Source: Candidatus Latescibacterota bacterium (GTDB taxonomy: Bacteria; Latescibacterota; UBA2968). Taken from it: a DNA stretch of 64,000 nt. The stretch covers positions 4,320,001-4,384,000 of the forward strand of contig OZ242311.1 of NCBI GenBank assembly GCA_965207885.1, in the 5' to 3' direction. Every line of letters begins with the position of its first letter. Within the stretch, counting starts at the first letter, position 1. This document shows, piece after piece, positions 1 through 35,166 of the stretch. Under the pieces are notes generated by a model, which was not told where the DNA came from, made no database searches, and was given only the letters and a program-made list of their open reading frames with translations. The translations under genes were made by a program, and so were the position numbers.

Positions 1-1
1 G

Positions 2-1171
2 ATCGGATAATGTCATAATTCTCGTGCGAAAGATCAACGGTGGCACCGACGCATGCCCTGGGATTAACACCTCGACCGTATTTTCTTTTGATGATCCCAA
101 TGTCAAGGTTGTCTGTGCCCTACCTTTGGTATTGGTAGTGCCGGTGGTGGTACTGAGTGAGCCACCACCTGAGGTGACGGTAAAAGACACCGGCACACCA
201 GCAAATGCTTTATTTCTCTGATCCCGCACTTCCACAACGTATGGGGCAGACAAAGTCGATCCGGGCGTGCCCTCCTGCCATTGCCCGGAGGCTATGACCA
301 ACTTCGTCGGCGTGCGGGAATCGAATCTTACGCGGACCCCGCGGCCCTGAAGGACCGGAATGTGCGTATTGAGGGAAGGATAGCTCAGAGGGTTTTCTTT
401 CAAAGAGACCTCGTCGCCATTTCCCAATCCCGTGTTTACTACCAATGGCGAGATGTCCAGGATGGCGTTTCTAAGAAGACTCAGCAGTGTCAGATCAGTT
501 AAGTTAGAAAGCGGAGATATATCCGAAATACTATTGTCCCACAGCTTCAGTTGCTTTAGACGGATTAAGCCCGCGAGGTGCGAGAGATCTGATATACTGT
601 TCTGGCTAATATCCAGAAACGTAAGTAGAGTTAAGTTGGAAAGCGGAGACGCATCCGAGATTGAGTTGCGCTCAAGATCCAGAAAAGTTAGACGGGTTAA
701 GTTGGAAAGCGGAGATACGTTCGAGATTGAATTGTGCTGGATATCCAGAAATGTCAAGCGAGTTAAGTTAGAAAGCGGAGACACATCCGAAATACTGTTG
801 CCTGCAAGTCTTAGCGTTTTCAGGCTGGTTAAGCCCGATAGGGGCGAGAGGTTGGAGATGTCGTTGCTGTTGATATAACGACCACCTTCTCCCCACTCGC
901 CACCGAGATAAAGATGAGTCAATCCGGTTGCATACTCAAGCCCAGTCAGGTTGTGGATATTCGCATCCTGCGCGTCAATGCGCGTCAATGTCGCCATTTC
1001 CGCCCGGGTAATCGTCGTACCGCTTGCCTTGTCTAACGAGTCCTCAATGACAGCCCTCAGGTTCACGTCGGGGATAGTTACGGCCTGGTTCTGCGCGCTA
1101 CTTTTGCCGCAGACGGCAAAGAAAATTAAAAGTATGGTAAAGACAGAAGATATATAACGGCAAAAAATCAT
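2..1171 (-). CDS. Secreted leucine-rich-repeat (internalin-like) protein followed by an Ig-like domain; runs off the left edge
   Basis: Manual minus-strand translation from ATG at 1171 (GAGGA upstream): MIFCRYISSVFTILLIFFAVCGKSSAQ signal-like, IPDVNLRAVIEDSL cap, repeats like SPLSNLTRLTFLDLERNSISD, then GQWQEGTPGSTLSAPYVVEVRD..GVPVSFTVTSGGGSLS. Absent from the ORF track because it is edge-truncated. Confidence 0.9.
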   Translation of the reverse strand, partial: MIFCRYISSVFTILLIFFAVCGKSSAQNQAVTIPDVNLRAVIEDSLDKASGTTITRAEMATLTRIDAQDANIHNLTGLEYATGLTHLYLGGEWGEGGRYINSNDISNLSPLSGLTSLKTLRLAGNSISDVSPLSNLTRLTFLDIQHNSISNVSPLSNLTRLTFLDLERNSISDASPLSNLTLLTFLDISQNSISDLSHLAGLIRLKQLKLWDNSISDISPLSNLTDLTLLSLLRNAILDISPLVVNTGLGNGDEVSLKENPLSYPSLNTHIPVLQGRGVRVRFDSRTPTKLVIASGQWQEGTPGSTLSAPYVVEVRDQRNKAFAGVPVSFTVTSGGGSLSTTTGTTNTKGRAQTTLTLGSSKENTVEVLIPGHASVPPLIFRTRIMTLSD

Positions 1172-1183
1172 AAATTTCCTCGC

Positions 1184-1480
1184 TCACTTTCTGTGGATCT
1201 CGCATTTGACCTCTGCTCGCTCACATAGCTTTGTCCATTGATACAGCGCGGTCCCATAACTCATGCGCTGATCTTTGTATTTTCCCGTCCTGAAGAGTGG
1301 TCCCGCGGTTAAATCTTCATTGCGAAGATACGCGCGCAATAGTTTCAGGCTTTCAAACTCAAAGGGCAACGGGACCTCGCGCTCGTACTCTCCTTTGCCT
1401 CTGAACCGCATACCCTCCTGCCCAGCACTCAGGACAATATCCTCAACGTAAATGCCCAGATACGAATCCCAGTTTCGGCC
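1184..1480 (-). pseudogene. Tyrosine recombinase/integrase internal fragment
   Basis: LGIYVEDI..FRGKGEYEREVPL..LRAYL..GPLF..LCERAEVKCEIH matches the Xer/Int catalytic core; it stops at the first His of H-x-L-R-H and lacks the N-terminus and catalytic Tyr. Confidence 0.7.
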
Positions 1481-1578
1481 AGCAGAGTGAACACCAGGCA
1501 TCTCAGCACTGTTGATCTATATCAAACCACATCTTCGATGCTCACATTATAGTTGCATAAATACACCTGATTCGCTCA

Positions 1579-2310
1579 TTACCGACACATTTCCTTATTT
1601 ACCTTTTTCCTTTCTACCTCTTGATCTTGATGATATCTAATGGACAAGCAAACTTCAAGAATACGATTATACACTAACCAGGTGCCTTCTCTTTTTCCGT
1701 TTATATATTCACGCCTTGATTTGTACCCTTCACTGAAATGAAAAACCGATTTGCCGTGCGCCTTGCCATCTACAAAGGAGATTTCCCTTACGGACCCATC
1801 TCTCTCACGGAGGACCCATTTGCCGTGCGGCTTGCCGTTCACATAGAAGCGTTCCTCTACGGCTCCATCCAAGTGACGCCAGATCCATTGCCCATGCTTT
1901 TTGCCATCCACATAGGGACCTTCCTCTACGGTCCATTTCGAGGGACGATGGACCCATTGTCCATGAAAATTGCCTTTCTGGAGGTGCCCAGTGTCCGTCC
2001 CTAAAATTTTAAGAGAGTCTCCGTCAGTAACAGCCCAGGTAAGCGTTCCTTCCCCATGAGCCAAATTTCCTGAACACTTGCCAGACCAGGTCACGGTCTC
2101 GTCTTTCTGAAGGTAAGGATTCCAGATATAGCATTCAGACTGGTTGGTCAACGCCATCCAACAACTGGAGCCTACAGGCTTTCCGCCACACGTTTTCCCG
2201 GCACTGATCTCCGGCGGCAGTTGAGCGGATGCCGGACCTGTCAACACAAGCGCCGAAATGAAAAAGCCAATAAGCATTTTTCGCCTGGCGTGTCGCTTTA
2301 TTTGATCCAT
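1579..2310 (-). CDS. Secreted MORN-variant repeat (YwqK-like) protein with Cys-rich N-terminal module
   Basis: Signal-like N-terminus, CxGK.GSSCW..CYIWN..TWSGKCSGNLAHGEG, repeats EGPYVDGKKHGQW / YVNGKPHGKW. Confidence 0.8.
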   Translation of the reverse strand: MDQIKRHARRKMLIGFFISALVLTGPASAQLPPEISAGKTCGGKPVGSSCWMALTNQSECYIWNPYLQKDETVTWSGKCSGNLAHGEGTLTWAVTDGDSLKILGTDTGHLQKGNFHGQWVHRPSKWTVEEGPYVDGKKHGQWIWRHLDGAVEERFYVNGKPHGKWVLRERDGSVREISFVDGKAHGKSVFHFSEGYKSRREYINGKREGTWLVYNRILEVCLSIRYHQDQEVERKKVNKEMCR

Positions 2311-2314
2311 CCTT

Positions 2315-2980
2315 TTAAAATCGCAGCACAGCCTTTACAAATGCTTGCCGACGGGGGTAAGAAATCCCAAAAGACAATGGGGAGATGCGCCGTTTCTCGG
2401 AAAGTGATTGTATGGGAAGCATGTTTATTCTGTCTCTGATTTTACAGTAAAATTCTTGTTCTTTTCCGTTGTCAACTCGCACATGTAAGGTTTCCCCAGA
2501 TTTGTCCTTCATTACAAAATGGGTATTCTCTCGCAAGAGAACGCGTTCGGGGAATACTCCCTTTGATACCAGGGTAATCCCTGCTGATATTGTACTTTTT
2601 GCATAAGGTGATTCCAAGAACTCCCACCCATCTTGTTCATCTAAGACTGCACATAGTGCATACACTCCAAAAGTTATCCCCGCAAGACCCAGATCGTGAA
2701 AAAGTTTTCTCCACGCACCCGTTTCTCTGTGCATCCCTACTTTTACAGTATCATCCATCCCGAATTGTGCAACTAATAGGTTTGTCTTCTGGGCATATAC
2801 ACGAATTGTTTTTTCGTCACACTTGACAATTGCGGGAAACCAGTCTCCCTTATCTGAAACTCGATAAGCTGTTATTCCACCTGAAAATGTACAAATATCT
2901 GCTGACACCTCATGGGCTACCGCAACTGTGAAAAATCCCAATAAGATTGTAAAAAGAATGCCTTTGATTACGCTCTGCAT
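2315..2980 (-). CDS. Hypothetical exported/membrane protein
   Basis: 221-aa ORF with AAGGAAGG RBS; signal peptide MQSVIKGILFTILLGFFTVAVA resembles that of the 4732 gene. Confidence 0.7.
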   Translation of the reverse strand: MQSVIKGILFTILLGFFTVAVAHEVSADICTFSGGITAYRVSDKGDWFPAIVKCDEKTIRVYAQKTNLLVAQFGMDDTVKVGMHRETGAWRKLFHDLGLAGITFGVYALCAVLDEQDGWEFLESPYAKSTISAGITLVSKGVFPERVLLRENTHFVMKDKSGETLHVRVDNGKEQEFYCKIRDRINMLPIQSLSEKRRISPLSFGISYPRRQAFVKAVLRF

Positions 2981-3026
2981 AGGTGTACCTTCCTTTCGTT
3001 GGTGATTCTGTTAGGTGTAGGTGAAT

Positions 3027-3068
3027 AAAAAAACACCACCTCTTTTCCTTCCCACACAAGAGGTAAAG
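3027..3068 (-). terminator. Putative intrinsic terminator
   Basis: Minus strand ACCTCTT-loop-AAGAGGT followed by GGTGTTTTTTT. Confidence 0.45.
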
Positions 3069-3085
3069 AGATAAAGAGTCAGGAG

Positions 3086-3456
3086 TTAAAGATCCCGGGC
3101 AACTCGAAAACCGATGAAGTCGTCCCGGTTCTCGGTGGGAAGCCTGAAGCGAGCCGCAGAACGCAAGAAACTCGGTAAGCTAAACCACGAACCACCACGC
3201 AACACGCGCATTCTGCAGTTCCCAAACAGCCAGGCAGATCCATCTGTCGGTGCCCTTCGTAATTCTCGTTCCAACAATCTTGTACCCATTCCTCTACATT
3301 CCCGTGCATGTCGTGAAGTTCCCATCTGTTGGCACTGAAGGAATCCACCGGAGATGAGTGTCGCTTATCCCACTGACTGCCGCAACCCGAGCAATTGGCA
3401 CGGTTAACACCAATGTCGTTCCCCCAGCTATACGTTGTTGTTGAGCCAGCACGCGC
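3086..3456 (-). pseudogene. FGE-sulfatase (SUMF1/C-type-lectin-fold) C-terminal fragment, frameshifted
   Basis: Joining two frames at ~3253 gives ARAGSTTTYSWGNDIGVNRANC..LHDMHGNVEEWVQDCWNENYEG/APTDGSAW..RVLRGGSW..LRSAARF..IGFRVARDL*; no start codon or N-terminus. Confidence 0.85.
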
Positions 3457-3489
3457 AACACAACGCCAGTAATCCAGTGACTTTAGTCA

Positions 3490-3650
3490 TCACCGCGACC
3501 GCCTAAGACCGTTTACATAGGTCTCTGTGCGTGTGCGTCCGGACGAGTCACGCCTAACATAATCGCCGTGCCTCTTGCCGTCCACATAAGGGCCTTTCTT
3601 TACTGTTCTGCCGTAAGTCTCGACCCAATGGCCCGGACAGCTTGCCCTGT
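3490..3650 (-). pseudogene. Orphan MORN-variant C-terminal cassette
   Basis: GHWVE..KGPYVDGKRHGDYVRR..RTETYVNG parallels the C-terminus of the upstream 3683-4732 protein. Confidence 0.6.
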
Positions 3651-3682
3651 CCACAAACGCGATCGGGAAACTTCTGCAAAGA

Positions 3683-4732
3683 CTATTGCTTCTCGCCATT
3701 CACATAAGTTGATGTTTTTGTTCTAACTATTTTGCCGCCTGCCATTACACGCTCGACCCATTGCCCGTGCCGCTTGTCATCCACATATGAGCCTTTCTCT
3801 TCTTCATATCCATCACTCCATCCCCCCCACGCGCCCCTGGATCTCAAGACCCATTCGCCGTGTCGCTTGTCGTTCACATAGAGACCTCCCCAATCTCCAC
3901 TCGCCTCCGGGTGACTATAGACCCACTGCCCGTGCCGCTTCCCTTCCTTATAGAGGCCTTTCTCTGTGGTCCTACTATCCTCCCACCGTACAACCCACTG
4001 CCCGTGCCGCTTGCCTTCCACATAGGGGCCTTCAAATATGCCCCCATTCCCCCGTTCAACCCACTGCCCATGCTTCTTGCCTTCTACATAGGGGCCTTCC
4101 TCTGTCATGAACGTACCCCACCGTACAACCCACTGCCCGTGCCGCTTGCCTTTCTGGAGATGCCCTGTTGATGTAATTGAGCCTCCGTCAGTAAAAGCCC
4201 CGGTAAGCGTTCCCTCCCCATGAGCCAAATTTCCTGAACACTTGCCAGACCAGGTTACGGTCTGCTCCGTATAGTAGTAGTCATTCCAGACATAGCATTC
4301 AGGATGGTTGGTCAATTCCATCCAACAACTGGAGCCAAAAGGCTTTCCAGCACACATTTCCTCAGCACTGATCTCAGTCCCTTCAACTTCGAGCAATAAC
4401 ACCAGTGCCTCCCTATAGAACTGTCCCTCTCTCCCTGTTGCTGACAGATACTTGTTTACCGACTCATGCGCGATCTTGATTGAATCTGCTGACCAGGCCA
4501 CACGCGCATATTTGAAGTGAAACTCGTCCGGCAATGTGAAGTTGTGCTCTTTTTGTAGCGCGATGATCTTTTCCATCACATTGAAGGCACCTGCATAGTC
4601 TTCTTTTGCATGTAACTGGTCTGCCTGAATCAGATGTTTATCTACCATGATCTCTGGCGGTAGTTGGGCAGATGCAACCGTGAAAAATCCCAGCGAAAAT
4701 AGAACGAAAATACTTCTGATGACGCTCTGCAT
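3683..4732 (-). CDS. Secreted protein: helical N-terminal module, Cys-rich module and MORN-variant repeats (YwqK-like)
   Basis: Likely start MQSVIRSIF at 4732 after AAGGAG; about six EGPYVEGKRHGQWV repeats. Confidence 0.85.
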   Translation of the reverse strand: MQSVIRSIFVLFSLGFFTVASAQLPPEIMVDKHLIQADQLHAKEDYAGAFNVMEKIIALQKEHNFTLPDEFHFKYARVAWSADSIKIAHESVNKYLSATGREGQFYREALVLLLEVEGTEISAEEMCAGKPFGSSCWMELTNHPECYVWNDYYYTEQTVTWSGKCSGNLAHGEGTLTGAFTDGGSITSTGHLQKGKRHGQWVVRWGTFMTEEGPYVEGKKHGQWVERGNGGIFEGPYVEGKRHGQWVVRWEDSRTTEKGLYKEGKRHGQWVYSHPEASGDWGGLYVNDKRHGEWVLRSRGAWGGWSDGYEEEKGSYVDDKRHGQWVERVMAGGKIVRTKTSTYVNGEKQ

Positions 4733-4760
4733 GATGTCTCTCCTTTCATTATTTGACCTG

Positions 4761-5390
4761 CTATCGCTGTGTGCAGCCCCACACGCGCACACGGCATGAT
4801 TTTCCACCTCTTCGTCGGCATTCGCTTAGTGCCCTGTTTTGCGCTGCCACGCTACTGTTATCCTTTCCCCAGCCATAGATGGTGCTGCCCGGCTCTTGAT
4901 CCGCCGCGAAGGCACCGCATTGGTCGCTGAATCTCATGACCACATGGCAATTGTTGCCGCACTCGGCAAGTGCCCGCTGTTCCGCCTGTTGAGCAGTCGG
5001 ATAGTTGATGGCCCAGCCCCACGACGGCCCTTGATTCGAGTCAATGGCGAGTGCTCCCCACAGCGTAGTATTCGCTGTTTGATCGCCTTGAGTCAGTGCT
5101 GGCGCATCGAAGTGGCTGCTCATACCGGACATTTCGATAACGGTAAATGTGTTCGTAAACGCCATGAACTCGTCCGCGGCCTGGTAAGCGTCCATGGAAT
5201 CGTAGGAACCGCCAGTTTGGGCTGTAACCTGGCGCAGATCCTGTGCCGCTTGCGCGTTCGGAGTCATGCTATACCCCAACAGCAAGCTATTTTTGCCATG
5301 TCCACCCTCTTGAGAAAAAGCCTGCGATCCCCAACTGATCGCAGCCACAACCATAGCGGCCTTTACCATTGTTCTTGCAATACGGTTCAT
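4761..5390 (-). CDS. Secreted DUF4189-domain protein
   Basis: C-terminal WGALAID..GWAINYPT..AEQRALAEC..C.V.MRF.DQCGAFA..AQNRALSEC..C.VRVWGCT; signal peptide; AGGAG RBS. Confidence 0.8.
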   Translation of the reverse strand: MNRIARTMVKAAMVVAAISWGSQAFSQEGGHGKNSLLLGYSMTPNAQAAQDLRQVTAQTGGSYDSMDAYQAADEFMAFTNTFTVIEMSGMSSHFDAPALTQGDQTANTTLWGALAIDSNQGPSWGWAINYPTAQQAEQRALAECGNNCHVVMRFSDQCGAFAADQEPGSTIYGWGKDNSSVAAQNRALSECRRRGGKSCRVRVWGCTQR

Positions 5391-5463
5391 TGTAAGTCTC
5401 CTATATGAAGGATGAGTAGTTGCCCGCAGGGCAGTCGCCTGGGACTCGAATTTGATTTACAAA

Positions 5464-5480
5464 TGCAAAAAGCGTGCCAA
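5464..5480 (-). promoter_or_regulatory. sigma54 (-24/-12) promoter
   Basis: Minus strand TTGGCACGCTTTTTGCA = GG-N10-GC consensus, ~75 bp upstream of the DUF4189 start and adjacent to a sigma54 activator gene. Confidence 0.9.
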
Positions 5481-5510
5481 TGTGAGCATTGTGTTCCAGA
5501 CATATACTCG

Positions 5511-5523
5511 TAACAGGTTGTTT
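5511..5523 (-). promoter_or_regulatory. IHF-like site
   Basis: AAACAACCTGTTA vs WATCAANNNNTTR (1 mismatch) with an AT-rich flank, between the promoter and the putative enhancers. Confidence 0.45.
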
Positions 5524-5590
5524 TATATAAAGAAAAAAGCCAATCTGACTATATAATATCGCCGCAAAACAGTCGGATTGGCTTTTGCAT

Positions 5591-5648
5591 AAGACTTTAT
5601 ACGGTCTTATATAAGACGTATTATGGTCTTGAGACTATAGTACGTCCT
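5591..5648. promoter_or_regulatory. Three palindromic sites (AAGAC-N8-GTCTT), putative enhancer/UAS for the adjacent activator
   Basis: AAGACtttatacgGTCTT (5591-5608), AAGACgtattatgGTCTT (5613-5630), GAGACtatagtacGTCCT (5631-5648); about -138 to -195 from the predicted sigma54 TSS. Confidence 0.65.
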
Positions 5649-5749
5649 TTTTTGTTTGCAAGTGTGAGAGTCAATAATTATGTTTTCCTTTGCAAATGGG
5701 AGATACACTATGAACCCGTTTTTTTTCTTCACATCACAAGGTTCTTTCC

Positions 5750-8700
5750 ATGACCAAACCTCTTGACCGCACGGGCACCTGGCAGACGTATTCTCTGGAT
5801 AGCGGCCTGGCCGGGATGCGCATTGAACACATTGCGCAAGATAGTGAGGGTTGTCTCTGGTTCGCCACCTGGGACAACGGTGCCAGCCGATTTGATGGAG
5901 ACGAGTTCCGAAATTTTACCGAACGAGACGGTCTTTGTAGTGACCGGACTTTTTTTGTTCAAAAGGACAGTCGTGATCGGTTGTGGTTCGGTACATCAAA
6001 GGGCGTATGCTGGTACGACGGGGCAAATTTTCACCATTTGAAGGACGATGGCATTGCAGGCCGATCCGTGCAGTGCATCTACGAAGACAGTGAGGGACGT
6101 ATATGGTTCGGTGGCAAGAGTACTCTGGGATATTACGATGGCACTGCTTTCCACGACATGACCCCGCTCTACCTCCAGCGCTACGAGCAGCCTCCCTCTC
6201 CTAAGGTTTCTTTTTGTTGGGGTATCACCCAGGATATGGAAGGTCACCTGTGGTTTGGCTTTGACTACCTCATCCGCTTTGATGGGCAATCCTTTTACCG
6301 CTATGATGAGAAAGAGGGTTTTCCCAAAGATGCGGTCGCCTATGTTTTGGATAGAGACCATACCGGCAAAGTGTGGATCGGTCGGTTCGAAAATCGAGAT
6401 GAACTCTGGTGCTATGCCGATGGCACTTTCCAGTCTGTTCAGGTAGATTTGGGGGGGTGGCTGCGCAAAATTCAGTGTGATCGGGAAGGGCGAATATGGT
6501 TCTGTACCTCAGAGGGAGTACTATATCAGGACGGTAATAGATTCAGCAGGTTTCCCCTTGTCGATGGCTTGCATCCCGCAGTCAAAGCCGTATTTCAGGA
6601 TGGCGAGGATCAGTTTTGGTTCGCCACCTGGAGTGGCATTGGGCTTTACGATGCGCATAGTATCAGCGTTTTTGACCCCGATAAGGTGTTTCCCAAAGAT
6701 ATAGAGCCGTGCGAGATCTCTCAGCTTGTGCAAGACAGTCGTGGTGATATATGGATCGGGTATATTTCTCCCATTCTGGCTTCTCTGGGCAAAAGAGTCG
6801 CCCGTTTTGATGGTAAGGACTTTGCATTCTTAGGCCCCGAGCAAGACTTTGCTATCGACAACTGTCTTTCTATCTACGAGGACCACGAGGGGTATTTGTG
6901 GTTTGGCGGCGGCACTGGCCTGTTCCGCTACGATGGACAAAAAATAGAAAAAACGGAAATAGCGACAGGCTTAGGCGAAAAGAGTATCAGCACAATTACC
7001 CAGGACGCACAGGGACAATTCCTTTTTGGTCATTGGGAAAGCGGCACGCCAATAAATAGAGAAGATTTTCTTATCAGTCCATTAAAGCTCATTTACCAGC
7101 AAGGAGAGCAGTTCCAAACCATTTTTGTGGAGAAAGAAAAAAAAGATGCTTTTAGTCACATTAGTCGCATCGGTACTGTGATTGTCGGACGCACGGGCGA
7201 GGTCTGGTTCCATCTGGCCTACCATAATTTCTCCGACACCGACAAGGGCTTCGCGCGCTGGCATCCCAAAGATGGGCTCAAATTTTATGGACTTGAAGAT
7301 GGGCTGATAGACGATAGGGTCACCGATCTTTTGGAAGACCATCAGGGAAACCTGTGGATCGCTACTCAGGGTGGTCTGGCTTGCTTTGATGGTAGCAACT
7401 TTCAGGCCTTCACGATTGAAGATGGCTTGCCGAACAATCGCATCCGTTGTCTATTCGAGGATTCGCGAGGACACCTCTGGCTCGGTACAGACGGGGGTGT
7501 GGTTCACTACGATGGTCAGCATTTCCAAACGATCAAGTCACCGCATATAGGATTGGTTTGCAAGATACTCGAAGATCGCGATGGAAATTTCTGGTTTGGC
7601 ACTGCGCTGGGTTCTATCATACGCTACCGTCAGCGGCAAACGCCGCCACAGATTCGCCTGCTTCGGGTGATTGTCGATAAGGTCTATGAGAACTCGAAGG
7701 AAGTCATTGTATCCACGGCAGGACAGCAGGTGATTTTCGAGTACAAAGGCATGAGTTTTTCCACCCATCCCCGCGACATGCTCTATATCTATCGCCTGGA
7801 GGGATACGATTCTGACTGGCAGCCTGCGACGCGAAAGATGCGGGTGCATTACCGGGACTTGCCACCGGGAGACTACGCTTTCCAGGTCAGGGCGATAGAT
7901 CACGACCTCAATTATTCAGAGATAGCGCAAGCGCGACTCTCAGTAGAGCCTGACCCACGTATCGAAGCATTTACGGACGTAATCAACCATCGAGGAAGCC
8001 AGAAGTTTATCGGTCATAGCGCAGCACTGCGCCAGTTTCAAACCAATCTTGAAAAAATTGCACCCACCAATATAACCGTGCTGATTATGGGCGAGACGGG
8101 TGTGGGCAAAGGACTGGCGGCGCGGGTGTTACACGCGCTGAGTGCCAATAGCGAGGGGCCTTTTATAGAGGTCAGTTGCGGCGCACTGCCCGAGGCATTG
8201 ATCGATAGCGAACTGTTTGGTCACGAGAAAGGGGCGTTTACCACTGCAGTTTCCCACAGATTGGGCAGGGTGGAACTGGCGAAGGGTGGCACACTCTTTT
8301 TAGATGAGATTGGGGATATGGCTCTTGAAACGCAGGTCAAGCTGTTGCGCTTGCTGGAAGAGGGCACATTTGAGCGCGTTGGGAGCAGCGAGACACTGAC
8401 GGCGCAGACGCGCATTGTGGCAGCGACCAATCGCGACTTAAAGGAGATGGTCAGCACAGGTGATTTTCGGGAGGATCTCTATTACCGCCTCAATGCCTTT
8501 CTGATGTATTTGCCGCCGCTGCGCGAGCGCAAGGAAGATATACCGGAGTTGGCCGAGTATTTCAAGGATCGTCTATCAGCACATATAGGCAAGCAAACAG
8601 ATCCTTTGACGCCAGAAATCATCAAGATATTGCAAACCTATGATTGGCCAGGCAATGTGCGGGAACTGGAACATACCATACAACGGGCAGTGATCTTGTG

Positions 8701-8965
8701 TCCTGATTCTCAAATCGGAGTGGAGGACCTGGGATTGTATGGTTATCGAATCGAAGATATGGGTCAGCGGACCTTATCCGCTTCTCAAGACCGCCCAATC
8801 GTTCCCTTAAATGAGTTTGAACGCCGCTACATCCTCGACGTGCTCAAAGCCACCAAATATCAGATAAAGGGACCTGAGGGCGCGGCGACATTGCTGGGAG
8901 TACCGCCTTCTACCCTGTACGGCAAAATGAAAAGACTGGGTATCAAAAATCAAAAACCAAAGTAG
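5750..8965 (+). CDS. sigma54-dependent enhancer-binding protein with two-component-regulator beta-propellers and Y_Y_Y domain
   Basis: Many QDSxGxLWFAT repeats; YIYRLEGYDSDW..YRDLPPGDYAFQVRA (Y_Y_Y); GETGVGK, ELFGHEKGAFTTA, LFLDEIG, FREDLYYRL, WPGNVREL; C-terminal AATLLGVPPSTLYGKMKRLGI HTH. Confidence 0.95.
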   Translation: MTKPLDRTGTWQTYSLDSGLAGMRIEHIAQDSEGCLWFATWDNGASRFDGDEFRNFTERDGLCSDRTFFVQKDSRDRLWFGTSKGVCWYDGANFHHLKDDGIAGRSVQCIYEDSEGRIWFGGKSTLGYYDGTAFHDMTPLYLQRYEQPPSPKVSFCWGITQDMEGHLWFGFDYLIRFDGQSFYRYDEKEGFPKDAVAYVLDRDHTGKVWIGRFENRDELWCYADGTFQSVQVDLGGWLRKIQCDREGRIWFCTSEGVLYQDGNRFSRFPLVDGLHPAVKAVFQDGEDQFWFATWSGIGLYDAHSISVFDPDKVFPKDIEPCEISQLVQDSRGDIWIGYISPILASLGKRVARFDGKDFAFLGPEQDFAIDNCLSIYEDHEGYLWFGGGTGLFRYDGQKIEKTEIATGLGEKSISTITQDAQGQFLFGHWESGTPINREDFLISPLKLIYQQGEQFQTIFVEKEKKDAFSHISRIGTVIVGRTGEVWFHLAYHNFSDTDKGFARWHPKDGLKFYGLEDGLIDDRVTDLLEDHQGNLWIATQGGLACFDGSNFQAFTIEDGLPNNRIRCLFEDSRGHLWLGTDGGVVHYDGQHFQTIKSPHIGLVCKILEDRDGNFWFGTALGSIIRYRQRQTPPQIRLLRVIVDKVYENSKEVIVSTAGQQVIFEYKGMSFSTHPRDMLYIYRLEGYDSDWQPATRKMRVHYRDLPPGDYAFQVRAIDHDLNYSEIAQARLSVEPDPRIEAFTDVINHRGSQKFIGHSAALRQFQTNLEKIAPTNITVLIMGETGVGKGLAARVLHALSANSEGPFIEVSCGALPEALIDSELFGHEKGAFTTAVSHRLGRVELAKGGTLFLDEIGDMALETQVKLLRLLEEGTFERVGSSETLTAQTRIVAATNRDLKEMVSTGDFREDLYYRLNAFLMYLPPLRERKEDIPELAEYFKDRLSAHIGKQTDPLTPEIIKILQTYDWPGNVRELEHTIQRAVILCPDSQIGVEDLGLYGYRIEDMGQRTLSASQDRPIVPLNEFERRYILDVLKATKYQIKGPEGAATLLGVPPSTLYGKMKRLGIKNQKPK

Positions 8966-8966
8966 A

Positions 8967-9923
8967 TTATACATTATCGCGAATTTTTCCCCAAACAGTA
9001 GCCGCAGCGTGGACATCTTGAATCGCCAGACCGCTCGAATACGCAATACATCCCTGCCCGCGCAAGTGTTCCAAATGTCCCAATGCTGCATGCCCGATAT
9101 TTAATATCTCATCCCCCTCGCCTTTTACCCAGCGGGGCGTCTCCTCTCTCTCGCACAACGCGAGAAACTCCCCCGACTTCAGCACCTGATCACCGTGATC
9201 AGGCACCATAAATCGCCGCGTCAACAATCCCGGATCCAATTGCGTGGAGCGCCCATCGCCTCCAATCACAGAAATATGCACCTGGCTTTCCACATCGAAT
9301 AGAATCGGCTCAGGCGTTGGCACAGAAGTAAAAATGGCATCTGCCCCATCAATACAGGACTCAATATCCGCAACCACCTCCAGATCACAGGAAATATCCC
9401 CTCCAACTTCTGCTTGATATGCCGCACGCCTCTCGGGCGTCCTGCTCGTTACGCGTATGGTCTCTGGCGCCAGAGCCGCATCAATACACCTACCCAGTGC
9501 CTGTGCAATGCGCCCCGTCCCCAGAATCGCCGCCGTGCGTACCGGCGACTTAGCCAAATACTTCGCCCCCAACGCGCCCGCCGCGCCCGTACGCATATTG
9601 GTAATACGCTCGGCATCAAACGAAATGCGGTCGCCCCTCCGCACATCCTCCAACTCGATCACAGCGGTTCTCGAACCCAACCGCCCCACCTTGACATCCG
9701 AACGCTCCTCAATAACCTTTTGTCCCGTAAATCTCCCCTTCCACCAGCCCGGCATCACCAGACGAAAAAGATCCATCTCACCCTCGCGCGAAACCTCTTC
9801 TTTCCGCAGCGGACTGACCATTTTCCCAAGACCATAAAGCCGAAACGCCTCGTCGCAACTCTCGACAAAATCCCGTGTCGTCATCACCGAAGCAATTTGC
9901 TCATCTGAAATATACTGTCGCAT
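8967..9923 (-). CDS. Ornithine cyclodeaminase/mu-crystallin family protein
   Basis: ITNMRTGAAGALGAKYLA, ILGTGRIA, SSGLAIQD; start MRQY after GAGGA. Confidence 0.85.
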   Translation of the reverse strand: MRQYISDEQIASVMTTRDFVESCDEAFRLYGLGKMVSPLRKEEVSREGEMDLFRLVMPGWWKGRFTGQKVIEERSDVKVGRLGSRTAVIELEDVRRGDRISFDAERITNMRTGAAGALGAKYLAKSPVRTAAILGTGRIAQALGRCIDAALAPETIRVTSRTPERRAAYQAEVGGDISCDLEVVADIESCIDGADAIFTSVPTPEPILFDVESQVHISVIGGDGRSTQLDPGLLTRRFMVPDHGDQVLKSGEFLALCEREETPRWVKGEGDEILNIGHAALGHLEHLRGQGCIAYSSGLAIQDVHAAATVWGKIRDNV

Positions 9924-9960
9924 GTATTCCTCACTTAAGAATGGGCAAGCCCCACCCAAC

Positions 9961-9988
9961 GGGCGGGCACGGGGGCACCGCCCCTACA
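9961..9988 (-). repeat. GTAG-type REP-like palindrome
   Basis: TGTAGGGGCGGTGCCCCCGTGCCCGCCC; degenerate copies at 42681-42742. Confidence 0.6.
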
Positions 9989-10112
9989 TTGATTGAATTA
10001 TCATACTGACATTGTGCTGCACGTGTGCCTGATCATTGACATTTGTTTTTGGGCGATCTATTTTAAGGCTATAGGGATACAATGTAATCAACTGAACCGG
10101 ACGAGGTAATGA

Positions 10113-12094: not shown

Positions 12095-12868
12095 ATGCCA
12101 TCATTGCACATTGACGAGACCAGTGTAAAATCGGTACTCGTGCCTCAAAATCCACCTGGCGAACCCATAACGGAATACACGCTCAACCCCTATTCCGGCT
12201 GTGGCATGGGATGTGCCTATTGCTATGTAATGAAGTTCCCATTCGCCTACGAATATCCCAAAGCATGGGGTAAATGGGTGCAGCCCAAAATGAACGCGCC
12301 ATTTTTGTTAGGCAAGGCGCGTGCCAAAATTTATGGGCGCAAAGTTTTCATGGGATCAGCAACCGATCCCTATCAATATATCGAGCGGAAATATCGATTG
12401 AGCCGACGCTGCTTAAAAGTGATGGTAGATTGCAATTTGAAGGCTCTAACCGTACATACGCGCAGTCATCTGATCTTGGACGACCTGGATTTGTTGGTGC
12501 GATTTGGCAGTCGATTGCGGGTGGGATTTTCCGTGCCGACGAATGACGATCGGGTACGCAAACGCACAGAGCCGAAAGCACCAAAAATCGGCGTACGTCT
12601 CAAAGCGATGAAGCGATTGCGCGAAGCCGGCATTCACGTCACCGCATCGCTTGCCCCCGTACTGTATTGTCAACCACGCGAATTTGCCCAACAAATAGCC
12701 GAAGCAGCTGACGGGGTATATTTTGGCAAAATGGATTATACAGACAGGACTGGGATAGCGTCCATGCCAAAAGCGCGACGCTATTTTAACAGCCTTACAT
12801 ATCGAGAATTGATTGCAGAACTCAAAGCGGAATTGATCAATGTAGGGATGTTGAAAAGCGAAAAATGA
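12095..12868 (+). CDS. Spore-photoproduct-lyase-like radical SAM protein
   Basis: NPYSGCGMGCAYCY (CxxxCxxC), SATDPYQ, TRSHLILDDLDLL, EPKAP. Confidence 0.85.
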   Translation: MPSLHIDETSVKSVLVPQNPPGEPITEYTLNPYSGCGMGCAYCYVMKFPFAYEYPKAWGKWVQPKMNAPFLLGKARAKIYGRKVFMGSATDPYQYIERKYRLSRRCLKVMVDCNLKALTVHTRSHLILDDLDLLVRFGSRLRVGFSVPTNDDRVRKRTEPKAPKIGVRLKAMKRLREAGIHVTASLAPVLYCQPREFAQQIAEAADGVYFGKMDYTDRTGIASMPKARRYFNSLTYRELIAELKAELINVGMLKSEK

Positions 12869-12875
12869 CCTGCGC

Positions 12876-14285
12876 TCATCTCCCCCCACTCGCCGCCGTA
12901 ATAAATCGCCTCTCCCTTTGACTCTTGAGCACCTGCTGTTCAATCTCTTCTGGATCACCCCAAATTTCCAATAACCGCTCGCGCATGGCATCGCGTATTT
13001 CTCGGTGTTGTGCCGACTCTGACAGATCGTTAAACTCATTCGGATCTTCTGCAATATTGAACAACTCGAGCGGATCTCCCGGGCTCATATTGAGCTTGTA
13101 ATCGCCCTTCTTGAGCATACCCACAGGGTGGATAACACCGTGGGCGAGGTATTCGCAGAAGGCTTCATCCTTCCAGGTCTCAATCTCACCATTGATCAGT
13201 GGCAAAAGGCTATCGCCGTCCAGAGGCGCAATATCCATCGAAGCGCCAGCGGCTTCGAGTATGGTAGCCACGAGATCGACGAGTGAAACATTTTGCGCCA
13301 CGCGCAAACCACCCGGAATATGCCCGGGCCAAACAATCTGAAGAGGCACGCGGGAGGACGCCTCATACATATTTGATTTGCGCCACATGCCGTGTTCACC
13401 ATTCATCTCCCCGTGATCTGAGGTATGCACAATAATGGTATTTTCAAGCTGGCCGGTTTCTTCGAGCGCATCGATGAGCTGGCCTATTTTTTCGTCCAAA
13501 TACGAGATAAGTCCGTAATAACCCGAGCGTCCCCTGCGAACGAGTTCTTCGGGAAAATCGGTCATACCAAACATCAGGCGCAGGCGTTTGTAAACCGGGT
13601 GCATATTCTCCATATGGCCTTCGGGGATATCGGGCATATCGATTTGATCCCGCGGATACATATCCCAGAACCGCCGCGGAACCACAAGCGGAAAATGAGG
13701 CGCGATAAACCCCACATTGATACACCAGGGCTGTTCTTTGCGAGCGGGATCTTTGATATACGCGAGAGCAGCTTCTTCAACCTGATCGTCAACCTGTATT
13801 TCAGTCGTTGTACCTGGCCCCGCCTGTGCAATACCCCCCCAGGGTCTCTGAGCTTCCACAACCCCCGCATCCCAATTGCCCTCGCCGCGCGGAACACCAT
13901 TCTTTGTCCACAATTCCGCATGCAAATCGCGCGCGAGTTGCGTGCGAAAACCGTGCAATTGATCGAGACCACAAAAATGCTGTTTACCCGATATCACAAC
14001 ATCGTAACCGACATTTCGCAAGCGATGCGCCCACGTAACCGTATCCGACGACATAGGAAAACCATTGTCATAAGTACCAATACGATTGATATAACGCCCC
14101 GTCATAAATGACATGCGCGACGGACCGCAAATCGGCGAATTGCAATACGCATTATCAAACGTGGCCCCCATATCGGCCAGACGCTCCATATTGGGCGATT
14201 GCACCAGTGAATGCCCGTGAATACTGCTGTATTGGGGGGCATGCTCATCAGACATAATAATCAGAATATTGGGCTTATCAGACAT
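12876..14285 (-). CDS. Sulfatase (choline-sulfatase-like)
   Basis: KPNILIIMSDEH, CGPSRMSFMTG (CxPxR), GKQH, APHFP, SDHGEM. Confidence 0.9.
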   Translation of the reverse strand: MSDKPNILIIMSDEHAPQYSSIHGHSLVQSPNMERLADMGATFDNAYCNSPICGPSRMSFMTGRYINRIGTYDNGFPMSSDTVTWAHRLRNVGYDVVISGKQHFCGLDQLHGFRTQLARDLHAELWTKNGVPRGEGNWDAGVVEAQRPWGGIAQAGPGTTTEIQVDDQVEEAALAYIKDPARKEQPWCINVGFIAPHFPLVVPRRFWDMYPRDQIDMPDIPEGHMENMHPVYKRLRLMFGMTDFPEELVRRGRSGYYGLISYLDEKIGQLIDALEETGQLENTIIVHTSDHGEMNGEHGMWRKSNMYEASSRVPLQIVWPGHIPGGLRVAQNVSLVDLVATILEAAGASMDIAPLDGDSLLPLINGEIETWKDEAFCEYLAHGVIHPVGMLKKGDYKLNMSPGDPLELFNIAEDPNEFNDLSESAQHREIRDAMRERLLEIWGDPEEIEQQVLKSQRERRFITAASGGR

Positions 14286-16596: not shown

Positions 16597-17838
16597 TCAA
16601 CTCCACAGCCTGTCATTCACCTGTTCATCATTCCACGCATCTGTCGGTTCAAAATAGCCGGGCAAATTGGGATTGATATGTTCTTTAATCGCTTCCTCAT
16701 TCAAATCAACGCCGAGTCCGGGCGCGTCGGGCACCTGAATATAACCATTTTGAACAATGGGATTGGGCAAGCCAGTAACGAGCGTATTCCACGGCGGATA
16801 ATCAACCGCGTGGCATTCCAGAACCAGAAAATTATTTGTCGCAGCCGCGCAATGCACGCTCGCCATCGTCGCAACCGGCGTCGCCGCCATATGCAGAGCC
16901 ATCGCAATGCCGTGTTCCTCCGCGTAATCCCCAATCCGTTTGGTCTCGAGAATCCCCCCCGACGTGGCGAGATCCGGGTGAATAATCGAAACGGCTTTAT
17001 TATCGATCAGCGGCTTGAAATGTTCCAGAAGATAAATATCTTCACCCGTGCAAACCGGGGTCGCAGTTGCGTTCTTGAGGCGCACCCATTGATCGGTAAG
17101 TTGCCATGGAATCATATCTTCCAGCCATGCGAGATTAAACCGCTCGAGTGCGCGCGCAAGGCGAATACACGACTCCACATTGATATGCCCGAAGTGATCC
17201 GCAGCCAGAGGAATCTCGTACCCCACAATATCGCGCACAACGCCCACATATTGAACGAGAACATCGATACCCTTATCGGTAAGCTGAATACCCGTAAAAG
17301 GATGCATAACCTGCGTGGTTTCCAGCATACCCGCGGGGGAAGATACCGTACCCGGAATACCTTTGAGCAAACGCACGCCAATATCCATCTTCAAAAAAGT
17401 AAAACCCTGCTCCATGCGCGCCTTTAAGCGATTGCCCATCTCTTCGGGATCCGGCGTTGTGTGAGTATCGCAATAAATGCGGATCTGATCGCGGAATTTC
17501 CCACCTGCGAGCTGATAACAGGGCACGCCATAAGCTTTGCCCGCCAGATCCATCAAAGCCATCTCCACACCACACACACCGCCACTCTGTCGCGCATGCC
17601 ACCCGAACTGTTTGATCTTGCGAAACAGCTTATCCACATTACAGGGATTTTCACCCAAAAGCTGGCGCTTCAGTTGCAAAGCGTAAATATGACTGGCCCC
17701 ATCGCGCACCTCTCCCAAGCCATAAATACCCTGATTGGTATCCAGGCGAATAAGCGTAGAGCGCATAGGCACACCGGAAAGATTGACAACGCGCATATCG
17801 GTAATTCTGAGATCTGACGGGGATGAATGAGTATTCAT
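16597..17838 (-). CDS. Mandelate racemase/muconate lactonizing enzyme family dehydratase
   Basis: GVEMALMDLAGK, KMD, ADHFGH, WLED, CTGED. Confidence 0.9.
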   Translation of the reverse strand: MNTHSSPSDLRITDMRVVNLSGVPMRSTLIRLDTNQGIYGLGEVRDGASHIYALQLKRQLLGENPCNVDKLFRKIKQFGWHARQSGGVCGVEMALMDLAGKAYGVPCYQLAGGKFRDQIRIYCDTHTTPDPEEMGNRLKARMEQGFTFLKMDIGVRLLKGIPGTVSSPAGMLETTQVMHPFTGIQLTDKGIDVLVQYVGVVRDIVGYEIPLAADHFGHINVESCIRLARALERFNLAWLEDMIPWQLTDQWVRLKNATATPVCTGEDIYLLEHFKPLIDNKAVSIIHPDLATSGGILETKRIGDYAEEHGIAMALHMAATPVATMASVHCAAATNNFLVLECHAVDYPPWNTLVTGLPNPIVQNGYIQVPDAPGLGVDLNEEAIKEHINPNLPGYFEPTDAWNDEQVNDRLWS

Positions 17839-17862
17839 AAAATTCTCCTGTGCATTCTTTCA

Positions 17863-19068
17863 TCACGGTCGCATGGGCGACCCATCTGGTGCCCGCGTTT
17901 GCGTCCACATAATAACCTCATCTTCGGGCGGATATTTTGCAGCGAGATCCTCGTCAATATCAATGCCCAGACCGGGATCATCATTGGGATACATATAGCC
18001 CCCGCGCACCTCGGGCAGCCCGGGAAACATATCATAGACGAGATCGTTGAAACGGCACCACTCCTGAATACCGAAATTGGGTGCCCACAGGTCAAGGTGC
18101 AAATTGGCCGCGTGACCAACAGGTGATGTATCGCCGGGACCGTGCCACGCCGTGCGCACATTGTACATATTGGCATAAGCAGCGACATTGCGCGCAGGAG
18201 TAATACCACCCATCTGGCTGACGTGCATGCGAATAAAATCAATGAGCCGATCTTGAATGAGAGGCATCCACTCGTGCGGATGATTAAACAGTTCGCCCAT
18301 CGCCAGGGGCGTAGCGCACTGCGCGCGCATGTGGTGAAAATACGCATTGTCTTCCGGCGCGAGAGCATCTTCCAAAAAGAAAAGCTTAAAAGGCTCTACA
18401 TCTTTGGCGAACTGGATCGCGTCAATCGGGCGCAAACGCTCGTGAATATCGTGCAAAAGCTCGACCTCAGGCCCGATCTCTGCGCGCACATGCTCAATCA
18501 TATCGCACATACGACGACAATATTCTCGCGGATGATAATAAGCACCATCGGGCGCACCATCGGGTTTTTGAATCGTATCTGACTGCCCCCCATATCCCCC
18601 CATCTGCACGCGGATGTGGCGATAGCCCTGTGCCATAAAGTGACGCACGCTATCCACCACTTCGTACTTGTCGCGCCCACTGGCATGAGCATACGTATCT
18701 GCCGCCTCTCGACATTTCCCGCCCAGAAGTTGATACACGGGCATACCCGCGCGTTTGCCCTTAATATCCCACAACGCCTGATCCACCCCCGATATGGCAT
18801 TATTGAGCACGGGGCCATTGCGCCAGTACCCATTGACCATGCTCATCTGCCAGATTTCCTCAATGCGATCCACATCGCGGCCAATAACAAAAGGCTTGAG
18901 ATGTTTTTCAATAGCCGTACGCACCGCGTGGAACCGCTGCGTAAACGTCGCGCAACCCAACCCGTAAAGACCGGGTTCTGACGTAATAAGTTTGACAATA
19001 ACGAGCCGCGAACCCGCAGGCTGCGTCACAATGGTTTTAACGTCTTTAATAGTTACAATTTCTGACAT
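17863..19068 (-). CDS. RspA/ManD-like acid-sugar dehydratase (enolase superfamily)
   Basis: GLGCATF, YWRNGPV, LLHDIHER, FLED, MGE, AWHGPGD. Confidence 0.9.
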   Translation of the reverse strand: MSEIVTIKDVKTIVTQPAGSRLVIVKLITSEPGLYGLGCATFTQRFHAVRTAIEKHLKPFVIGRDVDRIEEIWQMSMVNGYWRNGPVLNNAISGVDQALWDIKGKRAGMPVYQLLGGKCREAADTYAHASGRDKYEVVDSVRHFMAQGYRHIRVQMGGYGGQSDTIQKPDGAPDGAYYHPREYCRRMCDMIEHVRAEIGPEVELLHDIHERLRPIDAIQFAKDVEPFKLFFLEDALAPEDNAYFHHMRAQCATPLAMGELFNHPHEWMPLIQDRLIDFIRMHVSQMGGITPARNVAAYANMYNVRTAWHGPGDTSPVGHAANLHLDLWAPNFGIQEWCRFNDLVYDMFPGLPEVRGGYMYPNDDPGLGIDIDEDLAAKYPPEDEVIMWTQTRAPDGSPMRP

Positions 19069-19083
19069 ATCTGCTCCAAATCT

Positions 19084-20124
19084 TTACAGCCCCTCGGGCA
19101 ACGCGAGATTAAATCGCCGCGCGGCTTTGCGGAGTTTTTCCGCCGTACCCGCTGGAATGGGAATACCTTCGGCAGCGCGTTCGACAAGGGTGCGATTTTC
19201 GGGTTCCCCTGGCATGAGCACATCGTCAAAGCCATCTGCTCTGGGCAGTGCTTTGAGTTCATCGATCAAATTATCGACGTGGTCTTTGTAATCATCCAGA
19301 TCAACAAAAAAGGAAATATCAATCGCAGCGACAATGCCGTTTTGCTTTCTCGAATTCTCGCCCCCGCGCAATACGGGAACGAGCAGAGGATTATTGACCA
19401 TCAAACTGGACAAACACTGAAAAACCAGAGCCAGACCCGATCCCTTGGGACCACCTGCCGGACGCAAGATAACCCCCTTACGCGCATCCGTCGTCGGATT
19501 GCCCTCGGCATCGAGTGCCCAATCTTCGCCCAGCGGCACGCCCTTATCCTGCGCGAGCTGAAGTTTGCCCCCCGCTGCCACACTTGTCGCCATATCGAGA
19601 CTGATGGGATCGCGTTTATTCGCCGGAACCGCAACGGCTATCGGGCTATTGTGTACGCCCGCTGCCTTCGCGCCAAAAGGGGCCATATTGGGCGGACTGC
19701 AAACAATGGCAATCCCGGCAAAGCCCTCCTGTGCCGCCATCAAAGAATAATAAGCCATCGCGCCCTGATGCGTAACATCGCTGAGCAACACCCATCCGAT
19801 ACCCACATTTTTTGCCTTCTCAATGGCTTTTTTCATCGCAGGCACAGTCGCCACAGGTCCAAGAGCGCGGTCGCACGCAATGTGGGCAACCGCTGGCGAC
19901 TCTTTCACAACGCGAATATTGGGCCGAGGATTCATCGCGCCTGTCTCAATATTGTTGAGATACGAAATAATGCGCAAAACCCCGTGAGAATCGACCCCAC
20001 GCAGATTCGCCCAAATAAGCACTTCTGCTTCTATGGCGGCATCTTCGGGCGGCATACCCGCGTTTTCAAAAACGGATTGGATAAACGGTTCCAGATGTTC
20101 TGCGCGAATGCGAATGTCCGACAT
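19084..20124 (-). CDS. Ldh_2 (class II malate/L-lactate dehydrogenase) family oxidoreductase
   Basis: ANLRGVDSHG, LDMATS, GGPKGSGL, MPGEPE. Confidence 0.9.
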   Translation of the reverse strand: MSDIRIRAEHLEPFIQSVFENAGMPPEDAAIEAEVLIWANLRGVDSHGVLRIISYLNNIETGAMNPRPNIRVVKESPAVAHIACDRALGPVATVPAMKKAIEKAKNVGIGWVLLSDVTHQGAMAYYSLMAAQEGFAGIAIVCSPPNMAPFGAKAAGVHNSPIAVAVPANKRDPISLDMATSVAAGGKLQLAQDKGVPLGEDWALDAEGNPTTDARKGVILRPAGGPKGSGLALVFQCLSSLMVNNPLLVPVLRGGENSRKQNGIVAAIDISFFVDLDDYKDHVDNLIDELKALPRADGFDDVLMPGEPENRTLVERAAEGIPIPAGTAEKLRKAARRFNLALPEGL

Positions 20125-20271
20125 GGCAATCCTTTCTAATAGGCTTCAAGAGACCTTGACTTTGAAATTTTTTTCCGCTATGCTGTCTGACAAATTAGTT
20201 TCGCGTTTTTGAAGCGTCAAGATAATAAATCCCAACGAAAAAAAGAAAAACAACTTCTGGAGGGCCTACTT

Positions 20272-22805: not shown

Positions 22806-22820
22806 ATCAGGAGGATTATC

Positions 22821-23960: not shown

Positions 23961-24091
23961 AAAAGGAGTATTAAAGATGCGGATACAATAGTACCTCGGC
24001 CTGCTCTCATTGATTTATTTGCGCGCCCAACGCACAACTTTAATACAACTCAGAAGCATCTGTATGTATCCATCTTTTCAGGAGAATAATC

Positions 24092-25231: not shown

Positions 25232-25246
25232 AAAGGAGCACTAAAA

Positions 25247-26029: not shown

Positions 26030-26060
26030 TTTCTTTGAAAAAACAAAAAGGAATTTCACC

Positions 26061-27317: not shown

Positions 27318-27331
27318 TCCTGGAGCACGCG

Positions 27332-28093: not shown

Positions 28094-28183
28094 ACTGACC
28101 TCACAAATGTACGCATTAATCGCGCCCCCGATTCACCGTTGAATCGGGGATATTTTTGGATAATCCAACAAAAGAGGCAAGCC

Positions 28184-34950: not shown

Positions 34951-34997
34951 CACTTCGTTTTTCACACCACCGAGAAATCACTTTGTGGTCAAAAATA

Positions 34998-35038
34998 AAA
35001 AACGGCAGTGGGTTGTAATACTCACCGCCGTTTCTTTT
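34998..35038. terminator. Putative bidirectional terminator
   Basis: AAAAACGGCAGTGGGT..ACTCACCGCCGTTTCTTTT. Confidence 0.55.
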
Positions 35039-35166
35039 AATGTATCGGACATCTTTTTTAAAAGCGACTCTTGCTCTGATCTCCAAAATCCTGTATCTAT
35101 AGCGTACAACTGAACCTCATTGTACACCGCTCCGACAGGTTTATCCCGATCCAGAGAATTGATACC

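Follow-up and report, generated by a model that had tools for sequence, protein, structure and literature searches.

The 64-kb stretch of DNA analysed in this study (positions 4,320,001 to 4,384,000 of contig OZ242311.1 of a Candidatus Latescibacterota bacterium; hereafter the window) carries a gene encoding a 1071-amino acid (aa) transcriptional activator of the sigma54-dependent type, which is separated by a divergent spacer of 359 bp from a run of minus-strand genes reaching from position 5390 to the start of the window. The genes nearest to the spacer encode an array of exported proteins, and the spacer itself holds a promoter and a group of palindromes (Table 1). A preliminary description of this locus had presented it as a self-contained module, in which a soluble beta-propeller sensor-activator faces a variable set of secreted, immunity-like proteins.

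Table 1. Features of the activator gene, the divergent spacer and the minus-strand array (window coordinates).
Feature	Position	Strand	Basis or remark
Activator gene, 1071 aa	5750..8965	+	open reading frame (ORF) and Pfam domains
Sigma54-contact loop GAFTTA (residues 828-833), in place of GAFTGA	8231..8248	+	read from translation
Candidate enhancer (upstream activating sequence, UAS): abutting 22-bp inverted repeats ATAAGAC-N8-GTCTTAT	5589..5650	.	repeat search and sequence; putative function
Terminator-like hairpin: palindrome with 16-bp arms between an A-run and a T-run	5535..5586	.	94% complementary
Sigma54 -24/-12 promoter TGGCACGCTTTTTGCA	5464..5479	-	exact TGGCACG-N4-TTGCW
Exported DUF4189 protein, 209 aa	4761..5390	-	PF13827, 7.8e-25, 87.8 bits (cut-off 25)
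Exported MORN-repeat protein, 349 aa from ATG 4732	3683..4732	-	AlphaFold2 pLDDT 91.4
Truncated MORN remnant, C-terminal repeats only	3490..3699	-	alignment to longer homologues confined to their C-terminal 40-55 residues
FGE-sulfatase remnant, last ~95 residues	3079..3357	-	frame change near 3253
Exported protein of no detectable family, 221 aa	2315..2980	-	hydrophobic N-terminus
Exported MORN-repeat paralogue, 243 aa	1579..2310	-	PF02493, 22.1 bits (cut-off 22.5)
Tyrosine-recombinase fragment, 105 aa, distal end of the array	1184..1501	-	weak sub-threshold matches

The activator is a single polypeptide, in which, as had been described, the sensor domains typical of hybrid two-component systems (HTCS) are joined to a sigma54 AAA+ ATPase and a helix-turn-helix (HTH). 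Pfam searches identified two Reg_prop beta-propellers (about residues 20-628; 7.6e-49), a Y_Y_Y domain (673-732; 1.8e-12), Sigma54_activat (PF00158; 754-917; 7e-65, 218 bits with a cut-off of 20.2), AAA_lid_14 (925-995; 1.8e-23) and a Fis-type HTH_8 (1020-1063; 3.9e-06, 26.9 bits with a cut-off of 22), while HisKA, HATPase_c, Response_reg and AraC-type HTH domains were absent at E up to 0.01. The Walker A (GETGVGKG) and Walker B (DEIGD) motifs are both readable in the translation. No NCBIfam equivalog cut-off was reached by the protein, which gave partial, sub-cut-off matches to NifA and NorR. Its N-terminal 745 residues match the periplasmic sensors of HTCS in sequence (3v9f, 2.3e-45; 4a2l (BT4663), 2.4e-39), and Foldseek comparison of its fold with the HTCS sensors 3v9f and 4a2m gave E values of about 1e-30 (best 5e-31, with a TM-score on target of 0.64). 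The sensor is thus, by sequence as well as by fold, a true relative of the HTCS periplasmic domains. The C-terminal part resembles the structures of FleQ, NtrC1, ZraR, PspF and DmpR (Foldseek). In the AlphaFold2 model, for which 40 homologues were used as input, the propellers have a predicted local distance difference test (pLDDT) score of 80-94, with means above 80 in most of the 10-residue blocks of residues 21-620.

The topology of the activator was assessed with a Kyte-Doolittle hydropathy scan (not with SignalP or DeepTMHMM). This analysis revealed no hydrophobic region at the N-terminus (10-residue means within the first 45 residues peak at 0.67) and no segment resembling a transmembrane (TM) helix (the top 19-residue mean elsewhere is 1.04, at Walker A). 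The preliminary statement that the protein carries no signal peptide, no hydrophobic segment between Y_Y_Y and AAA+ and no kinase or receiver domain is therefore upheld, and no TM helix or export signal, either of which had been named as evidence against the proposal, was seen by hydropathy. No potential start codon lies between the preceding stop and the beginning of the ORF, which leaves no space for a hidden signal peptide, and the same methionine starts the 40 aligned homologues. Both hydrophobic features are likewise missing from 117 of 120 close homologues. Since an HTH and an ATPase that must contact RNA polymerase cannot sit outside the cell, the entire protein, sensor included, should be cytoplasmic. 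The identity of the signal, and a cytoplasmic ligand as such, are what we purely infer.

The loop through which the ATPase contacts sigma54 was compared among the activator and 120 close homologues (n = 121). GAFTSA was found in 94 proteins, GAFTGA in 16, GAFTTA in 2, GSFTSA in 2 and GSFTLA in 1, with no match in the remaining 6. GAFT[ST]A is thus the norm of the family (96/121). A text search for 'GAFTSA' found no literature on this motif.

The preliminary description had also placed a consensus -24/-12 promoter, in divergent orientation, ahead of the exported-protein genes, and this proved correct. The element TGGCACGCTTTTTGCA is the only exact TGGCACG-N4-TTGCW in the 64 kb (0.05 expected; at least one match in 5 of 100 shuffles), and it sits 74 nucleotides (nt) ahead of the ATG of the DUF4189 gene (position 5390), which has an AGGAG ribosome-binding site. 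Relaxed sigma54 patterns (1-2 mismatches) occur in the window at chance level, and therefore the weight rests on the exact site only. A second exact sequence, TGGCAC-N5-TTGC at 12312-12326 (minus strand), lies antisense within a radical-SAM gene and is most likely a chance match.

Further upstream, about 130-200 bp from the promoter or the expected transcription start, the palindromes form a tandem, in which the copy at 5589-5610 has perfect 7-bp arms, the one at 5611-5632 has one degenerate arm and a third, weaker unit can be read by eye at about 5631-5650. When up to 2 mismatches were allowed, ATAAGAC-N8-GTCTTAT gave two matches in the whole window, both of them these adjacent sites. Their position and dyad form fit enhancer sites of an AAA+ activator, to which the protein would putatively bind. 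Two 28-nt direct repeats (5649-5676 and 5683-5710; 75% identity, 34-nt spacing), each with TTTGCAA, are located just upstream of the activator start and may be part of its own promoter or operator. The hairpin between the palindromes and the promoter has a free energy of -21.4 kcal/mol (z -4.3; none of 200 shuffles folds as well) and resembles a bidirectional terminator, in a divergent spacer in which termination of a transcript should be unnecessary. It is not repeated elsewhere in the window, and an Rfam search of positions 1-10000 gave no match.

The first gene behind the promoter encodes a protein composed of a signal peptide, a linker of ~80 residues and a C-terminal six-cysteine DUF4189 domain (residues 111-206), which weakly matches the structure of Rv1813c (7nhz, E 0.005). 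It is followed by the 349-aa MORN protein, in which the signal peptide is followed by a domain of five helices, a module with four cysteines and MORN beta-hairpin repeats. The top Foldseek matches of its model (2e-11) are eukaryotic, namely MORN1, RSPH1 (a radial-spoke head protein) and junctophilin, the family profile matches MORN1 at 5.6e-16, and on the evidence of the model the protein appears to have the general MORN repeat fold. It had been labelled a MORN-variant protein; neither MORN protein of the window itself reaches Pfam MORN_2 (PF07661), which is reached by 15 of 50 members of the MORN family. The ORF at 3490-3699 is a truncated remnant. Similarly, what had been taken for an FGE-sulfatase gene is just a C-terminal stub, to which residues 226-260 and 261-320 of a related protein (P0216) align in two different frames. 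In relatives (P0216, P0136, P0141 and P0147), DUF4189 domains are fused to FGE-sulfatase (P0216) or to von Willebrand A domains, which suggests that the DUF4189/FGE pairing, present here as a remnant, is recurrent.

The 221-aa protein has no Pfam or NCBIfam family, and in the protein atlas its best score was 0.84, with none at 0.9 or above; the DNA encoding its signal peptide resembles that of the 349-aa MORN gene (72% nt identity). The two MORN genes share a 202-nt segment encoding the cysteine module with 84% identity (2010-2211 and 4174-4375). Hydropathy revealed N-terminal hydrophobic regions in 4 of the 4 array proteins (scores 2.2-2.8; 2.23 for the DUF4189 protein). At the distal end, the recombinase fragment matches Phage_integrase (E 0.015; profile positions 56-127 of 172) and XerA/integron integrase (0.0039), both sub-threshold, and the G+C content falls to 42-48% over 1501-3000. 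A gene for a leucine-rich repeat (LRR) and Big_1 lipoprotein (2-1171) prolongs the minus-strand run past the array, which might continue beyond this point or be located at a hot spot of recombination. Gaps between the minus-strand genes range from -17 to 132 nt and, by this measure, co-transcription of the array is plausible.

Y_Y_Y, Reg_prop and Sigma54_activat occur together in all of the best 120 homologues listed (68-96% identity over the full length), for 5 of which a name is given by the source, for instance 'sigma 54-interacting transcriptional regulator' with Gemmatimonadota labels. The architecture is thus abundant and already annotated automatically. Variation is spread evenly along these proteins, while the recognition helix of the HTH is nearly constant. 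Homologues repeatedly fall on contigs of one size (6530187, three times; 6322966, 5559252, 10277987, 192152, 238356 and 51210, twice each), which points to several activator paralogues per genome.

In a search with the sensor part only, 1.84 billion representatives were screened and 113,055 matches with E up to 0.001 were obtained, of which the best 150 (representatives at 50% identity) were sorted by hydropathy. Among them, 73 combine a hydrophobic N-terminal region with a TM segment, as in the classical form, 47 lack both, 16 have the N-terminal region only and 14 the TM segment only. The sigma54 AAA+ domain is present in 19 of the 47 soluble forms and in 2 of the 73 membrane forms. Pfam analysis of 38 of the best 150 found soluble sensors fused to sigma54 AAA+ (14), to HisKA/HATPase with or without receivers, to SpoIIE phosphatase and to PAS domains. 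It had been stated that sensors of this kind are, as a rule, parts of Bacteroidota HTCS located in the periplasm; with 47 of the 150 nearest representatives looking soluble, and with such varied outputs, this view is too narrow. Soluble propeller sensors would rather be a large, unstudied class than an oddity of this locus, as judged from sequence. Two other relatives, P0360 and P0379, combine propeller/Y_Y_Y, a signal peptide and a TM segment with sigma54 AAA+ and lid and carry no HTH (one of them has an N-terminal CBM9); it is unusual for a sigma54 ATPase to be tethered to the membrane and to lack a DNA-binding domain.

The neighbourhood in relatives was judged from contigs of equal size across the lists of activator, DUF4189 and MORN matches. 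Contig sizes of 25866, 60032, 36585 and 4805591 bases occur in all three lists, those of 19518, 307755 and 5666124 bases in the activator and MORN lists, and those of 5015, 9595, 343231, 49730 and 5180620 bases in the DUF4189 and MORN lists; moreover, 4 of 9 near-full-length DUF4189 orthologues fall on contig sizes also seen for the listed activators. On those contigs, the identity is 75-80% for the activator and 79-90% for DUF4189, but only 47-64% for MORN, which fits a faster-changing distal array. Taxon labels among the relatives differ (Gemmatimonadota, Poribacteria, Latescibacterota). The earlier notion of a variable set of exported proteins is made plausible by the paralogues, the remnants and the recombinase fragment, although it was overstated, since conservation of the neighbourhood can be checked just through contigs of equal size.

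The activator was compared with the known systems that it most resembles. As in the Bacteroides HTCS (BT4663 and BT3049; PDB 4a2l/4a2m and 3v9f), two Reg_prop propellers are followed by Y_Y_Y; unlike in HTCS, there is no signal peptide, TM helix (topology by hydropathy), HisKA, HATPase_c, receiver or AraC output, the output being a sigma54 AAA+ with a Fis-type HTH, and the sensor must act in the cytoplasm. BguR of marine Bacteroidota is, in the available part of its description, a one-component regulator that spans the membrane, with a signal peptide, one TM segment, a GerE HTH and no ATPase, which senses periplasmic beta-glucan (10.64898/2026.01.10.698779). Going by that partial source, both proteins have a propeller/Y_Y_Y sensor wired straight to a DNA-binding output, without a phosphorelay and with a neighbouring locus as the target; unlike BguR, the activator is soluble and of the sigma54-dependent type, with no TM helix and no GerE HTH after Y_Y_Y. 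With enhancer-binding proteins of the DmpR/XylR, NorR and PrdR types it shares the order of sensor, AAA+ and HTH_8, a divergent target promoter and upstream palindromes, and it differs from them in its sensor (a double propeller and Y_Y_Y of ~740 residues instead of V4R, GAF, PAS or ACT) and in the GAFTTA loop. In the way it works, the activator resembles one-component enhancer-binding proteins of the DmpR/NorR kind. Its sensor is of the HTCS/BguR lineage without the membrane topology of these systems, and the protein therefore belongs to neither of them.

Literature searches (supplementary files lay outside their scope) found no paper on the soluble propeller/Y_Y_Y-sigma54 architecture or its motif, and looser searches gave just TM-containing or unrelated systems, such as the Lysobacter HtsH proteins, which have one TM region each. 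A scan of genome contigs with back-translated patterns yielded 80 loci, dominated by generic AAA+ motifs, none of which encodes a propeller-sigma54 fusion; the apparent long matches among them are pairs of adjacent NtrC-type genes. The propeller match at one of these loci (L014) is a separate BguR-like GerE regulator and not a split form of the activator. At this locus (1461-6897; Aminicenantes metagenome-assembled genome), which is unrelated to the finding, the BguR-like propeller/Y_Y_Y/GerE gene is divergent from a gene for an FHA-GAF sigma54 activator.

Taken together, the locus is read here as a one-component sigma54 regulatory module that switches on a unit of exported-protein genes, to which we assign a probability of roughly 0.6. 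The 1071-aa protein would stay in the cytoplasm, and its Fis-type HTH would most likely bind the tandem ATAAGAC-N8-GTCTTAT sites. The double propeller and Y_Y_Y would probably gate assembly of the AAA+ ring on a signal from inside the cell, be it a small ligand or a partner protein, and the assembled ATPase would then remodel sigma54-RNA polymerase at 5464-5479. This would switch on the minus-strand unit, that is the Sec-exported, disulfide-rich DUF4189 protein first and the exported MORN-repeat proteins next, while the distal part of this unit is a decaying, recombining set of paralogous cassettes.

Several observations weigh against this reading. Regarding the activator, its topology is supported by hydropathy alone, its contact loop is GAFTTA and not GAFTGA (F and T are kept, the fifth residue differs), and its AlphaFold2 model has low pLDDT for Y_Y_Y and moderate pLDDT for AAA+, so that coupling of sensor and ATPase is not visible; with the Y_Y_Y model this poor, no conclusion on domain coupling was drawn from it. 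Regarding the DNA, the promoter and palindromes are known from this one locus, an unexplained terminator-like hairpin separates the promoter from the candidate UAS, part of the array consists of pseudogenes, and there is a weak terminator-like site at 3097-3080. In addition, rpoN was not among the families found in Pfam scans of the window ORFs, and equal contig size is a strong but not certain sign of the same contig.

The activator and the promoter could also be adjacent but uncoupled, the GAFTTA protein being a defective or repurposed AAA+ and the promoter being served by another paralogue. The non-canonical loop would agree with this, as would the existence of several paralogues per genome with nearly the same HTH recognition helix, which makes cross-talk possible. 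However, GAFT[ST]A, with F and T kept, is the norm in 96 of 121 family members, the exact promoter and the palindromes lie in the activator's own divergent spacer, and the equal-sized contigs suggest that the activator/DUF4189 pair stays together in relatives, and we regard such uncoupling as very improbable.

What the exported products do is a separate question, for which 'immunity-like' is one possibility among others; the term rested on a family name, while the MORN fold found here is of a generic eukaryotic type and Pfam scans of the window ORFs showed no toxin or secretion family. With the neighbouring LRR genes, a role in host or surface interaction agrees no less well. The products might then be 'eukaryote-like' repeat proteins of a symbiont, with the module regulating a colonisation-type surface repertoire, and this we put forward tentatively, as possible but doubtful. 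The nearest structural matches of the MORN proteins are all eukaryotic MORN proteins, the same strand runs into the LRR and Big_1 lipoprotein gene, a second LRR protein is encoded at 33724-34950, and genes for sulfatase and sugar-acid enzymes abound in the window. The two characterised members of the DUF4189 family point one to each role. The window protein has the layout of XAC2611 (Xanthomonas) and Rv1813c (M. tuberculosis), a signal peptide and a cysteine-rich DUF4189 domain, and differs from them in the additional N-terminal linker. According to the accessible part of a preprint, Rv1813c is secreted and acts on host mitochondria, in other words it is a host-targeting effector, whereas XAC2611 is, in the available part of its description, a periplasmic protein that prevents fratricide by the X-T4SS, a type IV secretion system (T4SS) (10.64898/2026.05.09.723464). 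The host-interaction role is further weakened by the conflicting taxon labels (Gemmatimonadota, Poribacteria, Latescibacterota) and by the fact that no host or habitat is assigned.

A protective role, in which DUF4189 would block attack by secretion systems and the MORN proteins would neutralise toxins as exclusion proteins of the envelope, appears unlikely. XAC2611 and the signal peptide and six cysteines of the window protein are in its favour, but no VirB/VirD4 families, which would mark an X-T4SS locus beside DUF4189, turned up in the Pfam scans, and neither T4SS, type VI secretion system, LXG nor any other toxin family was found among the ORFs of the 64-kb window; in Pfam and NCBIfam scans, no toxin family adjoins either MORN gene. 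The antitoxin YwqK belongs to the MORN_2 family and acts in the cytoplasm. That 15 of 50 MORN-family members reach MORN_2 would thus link the family to toxin neutralisation; on the other hand, the window MORN proteins miss MORN_2, are exported, unlike YwqK, and carry extra helical and cysteine-rich domains.

Elsewhere in the window, the second LRR gene is followed by a gene for a nucleotidyltransferase-HEPN fusion, resembling a toxin-antitoxin pair in one protein (33724-35946 for both genes). The region 16597-29323, with five paralogous enolase-superfamily (MR_MLE) genes among genes for GFO/IDH/MocA oxidoreductases, a PhyH dioxygenase, an aldo-keto reductase and Ldh_2, looks like a large sugar-acid catabolic island, near which a sulfatase gene (12876-14285) with an adjoining small radical-SAM gene is located.

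The module is real, coherent and testable; it also occurs widely in databases, and its mechanism is predictable. With activator, promoter and enhancer-like sites spread over no more than 3.6 kb, it is compact enough for testing in a surrogate host. A bolder and rather improbable extension is that the activator is one copy of a heavily expanded family (near-identical, about 70-80%) of cytoplasmic double-propeller sensors, each with its own sigma54 promoter and a fast-turnover cassette array (DUF4189, MORN, FGE or LRR). If this were true, the result would be a repertoire of interaction proteins of the surface or periplasm that is distributed over multiple loci and gated by sensors, and the propellers would detect a macromolecular cue from inside the cell instead of a periplasmic glycan. 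Propeller/Y_Y_Y sensors have so far been studied only as periplasmic glycan detectors, while here, and in about a third of the nearest relatives, this type of sensor cannot leave the cytoplasm and is connected to sigma54, kinase or phosphatase outputs. Identifying the intracellular signal of a double propeller of 740 residues would give access to an unstudied class of signal receptors and would also explain why several near-identical copies are kept in some lineages.

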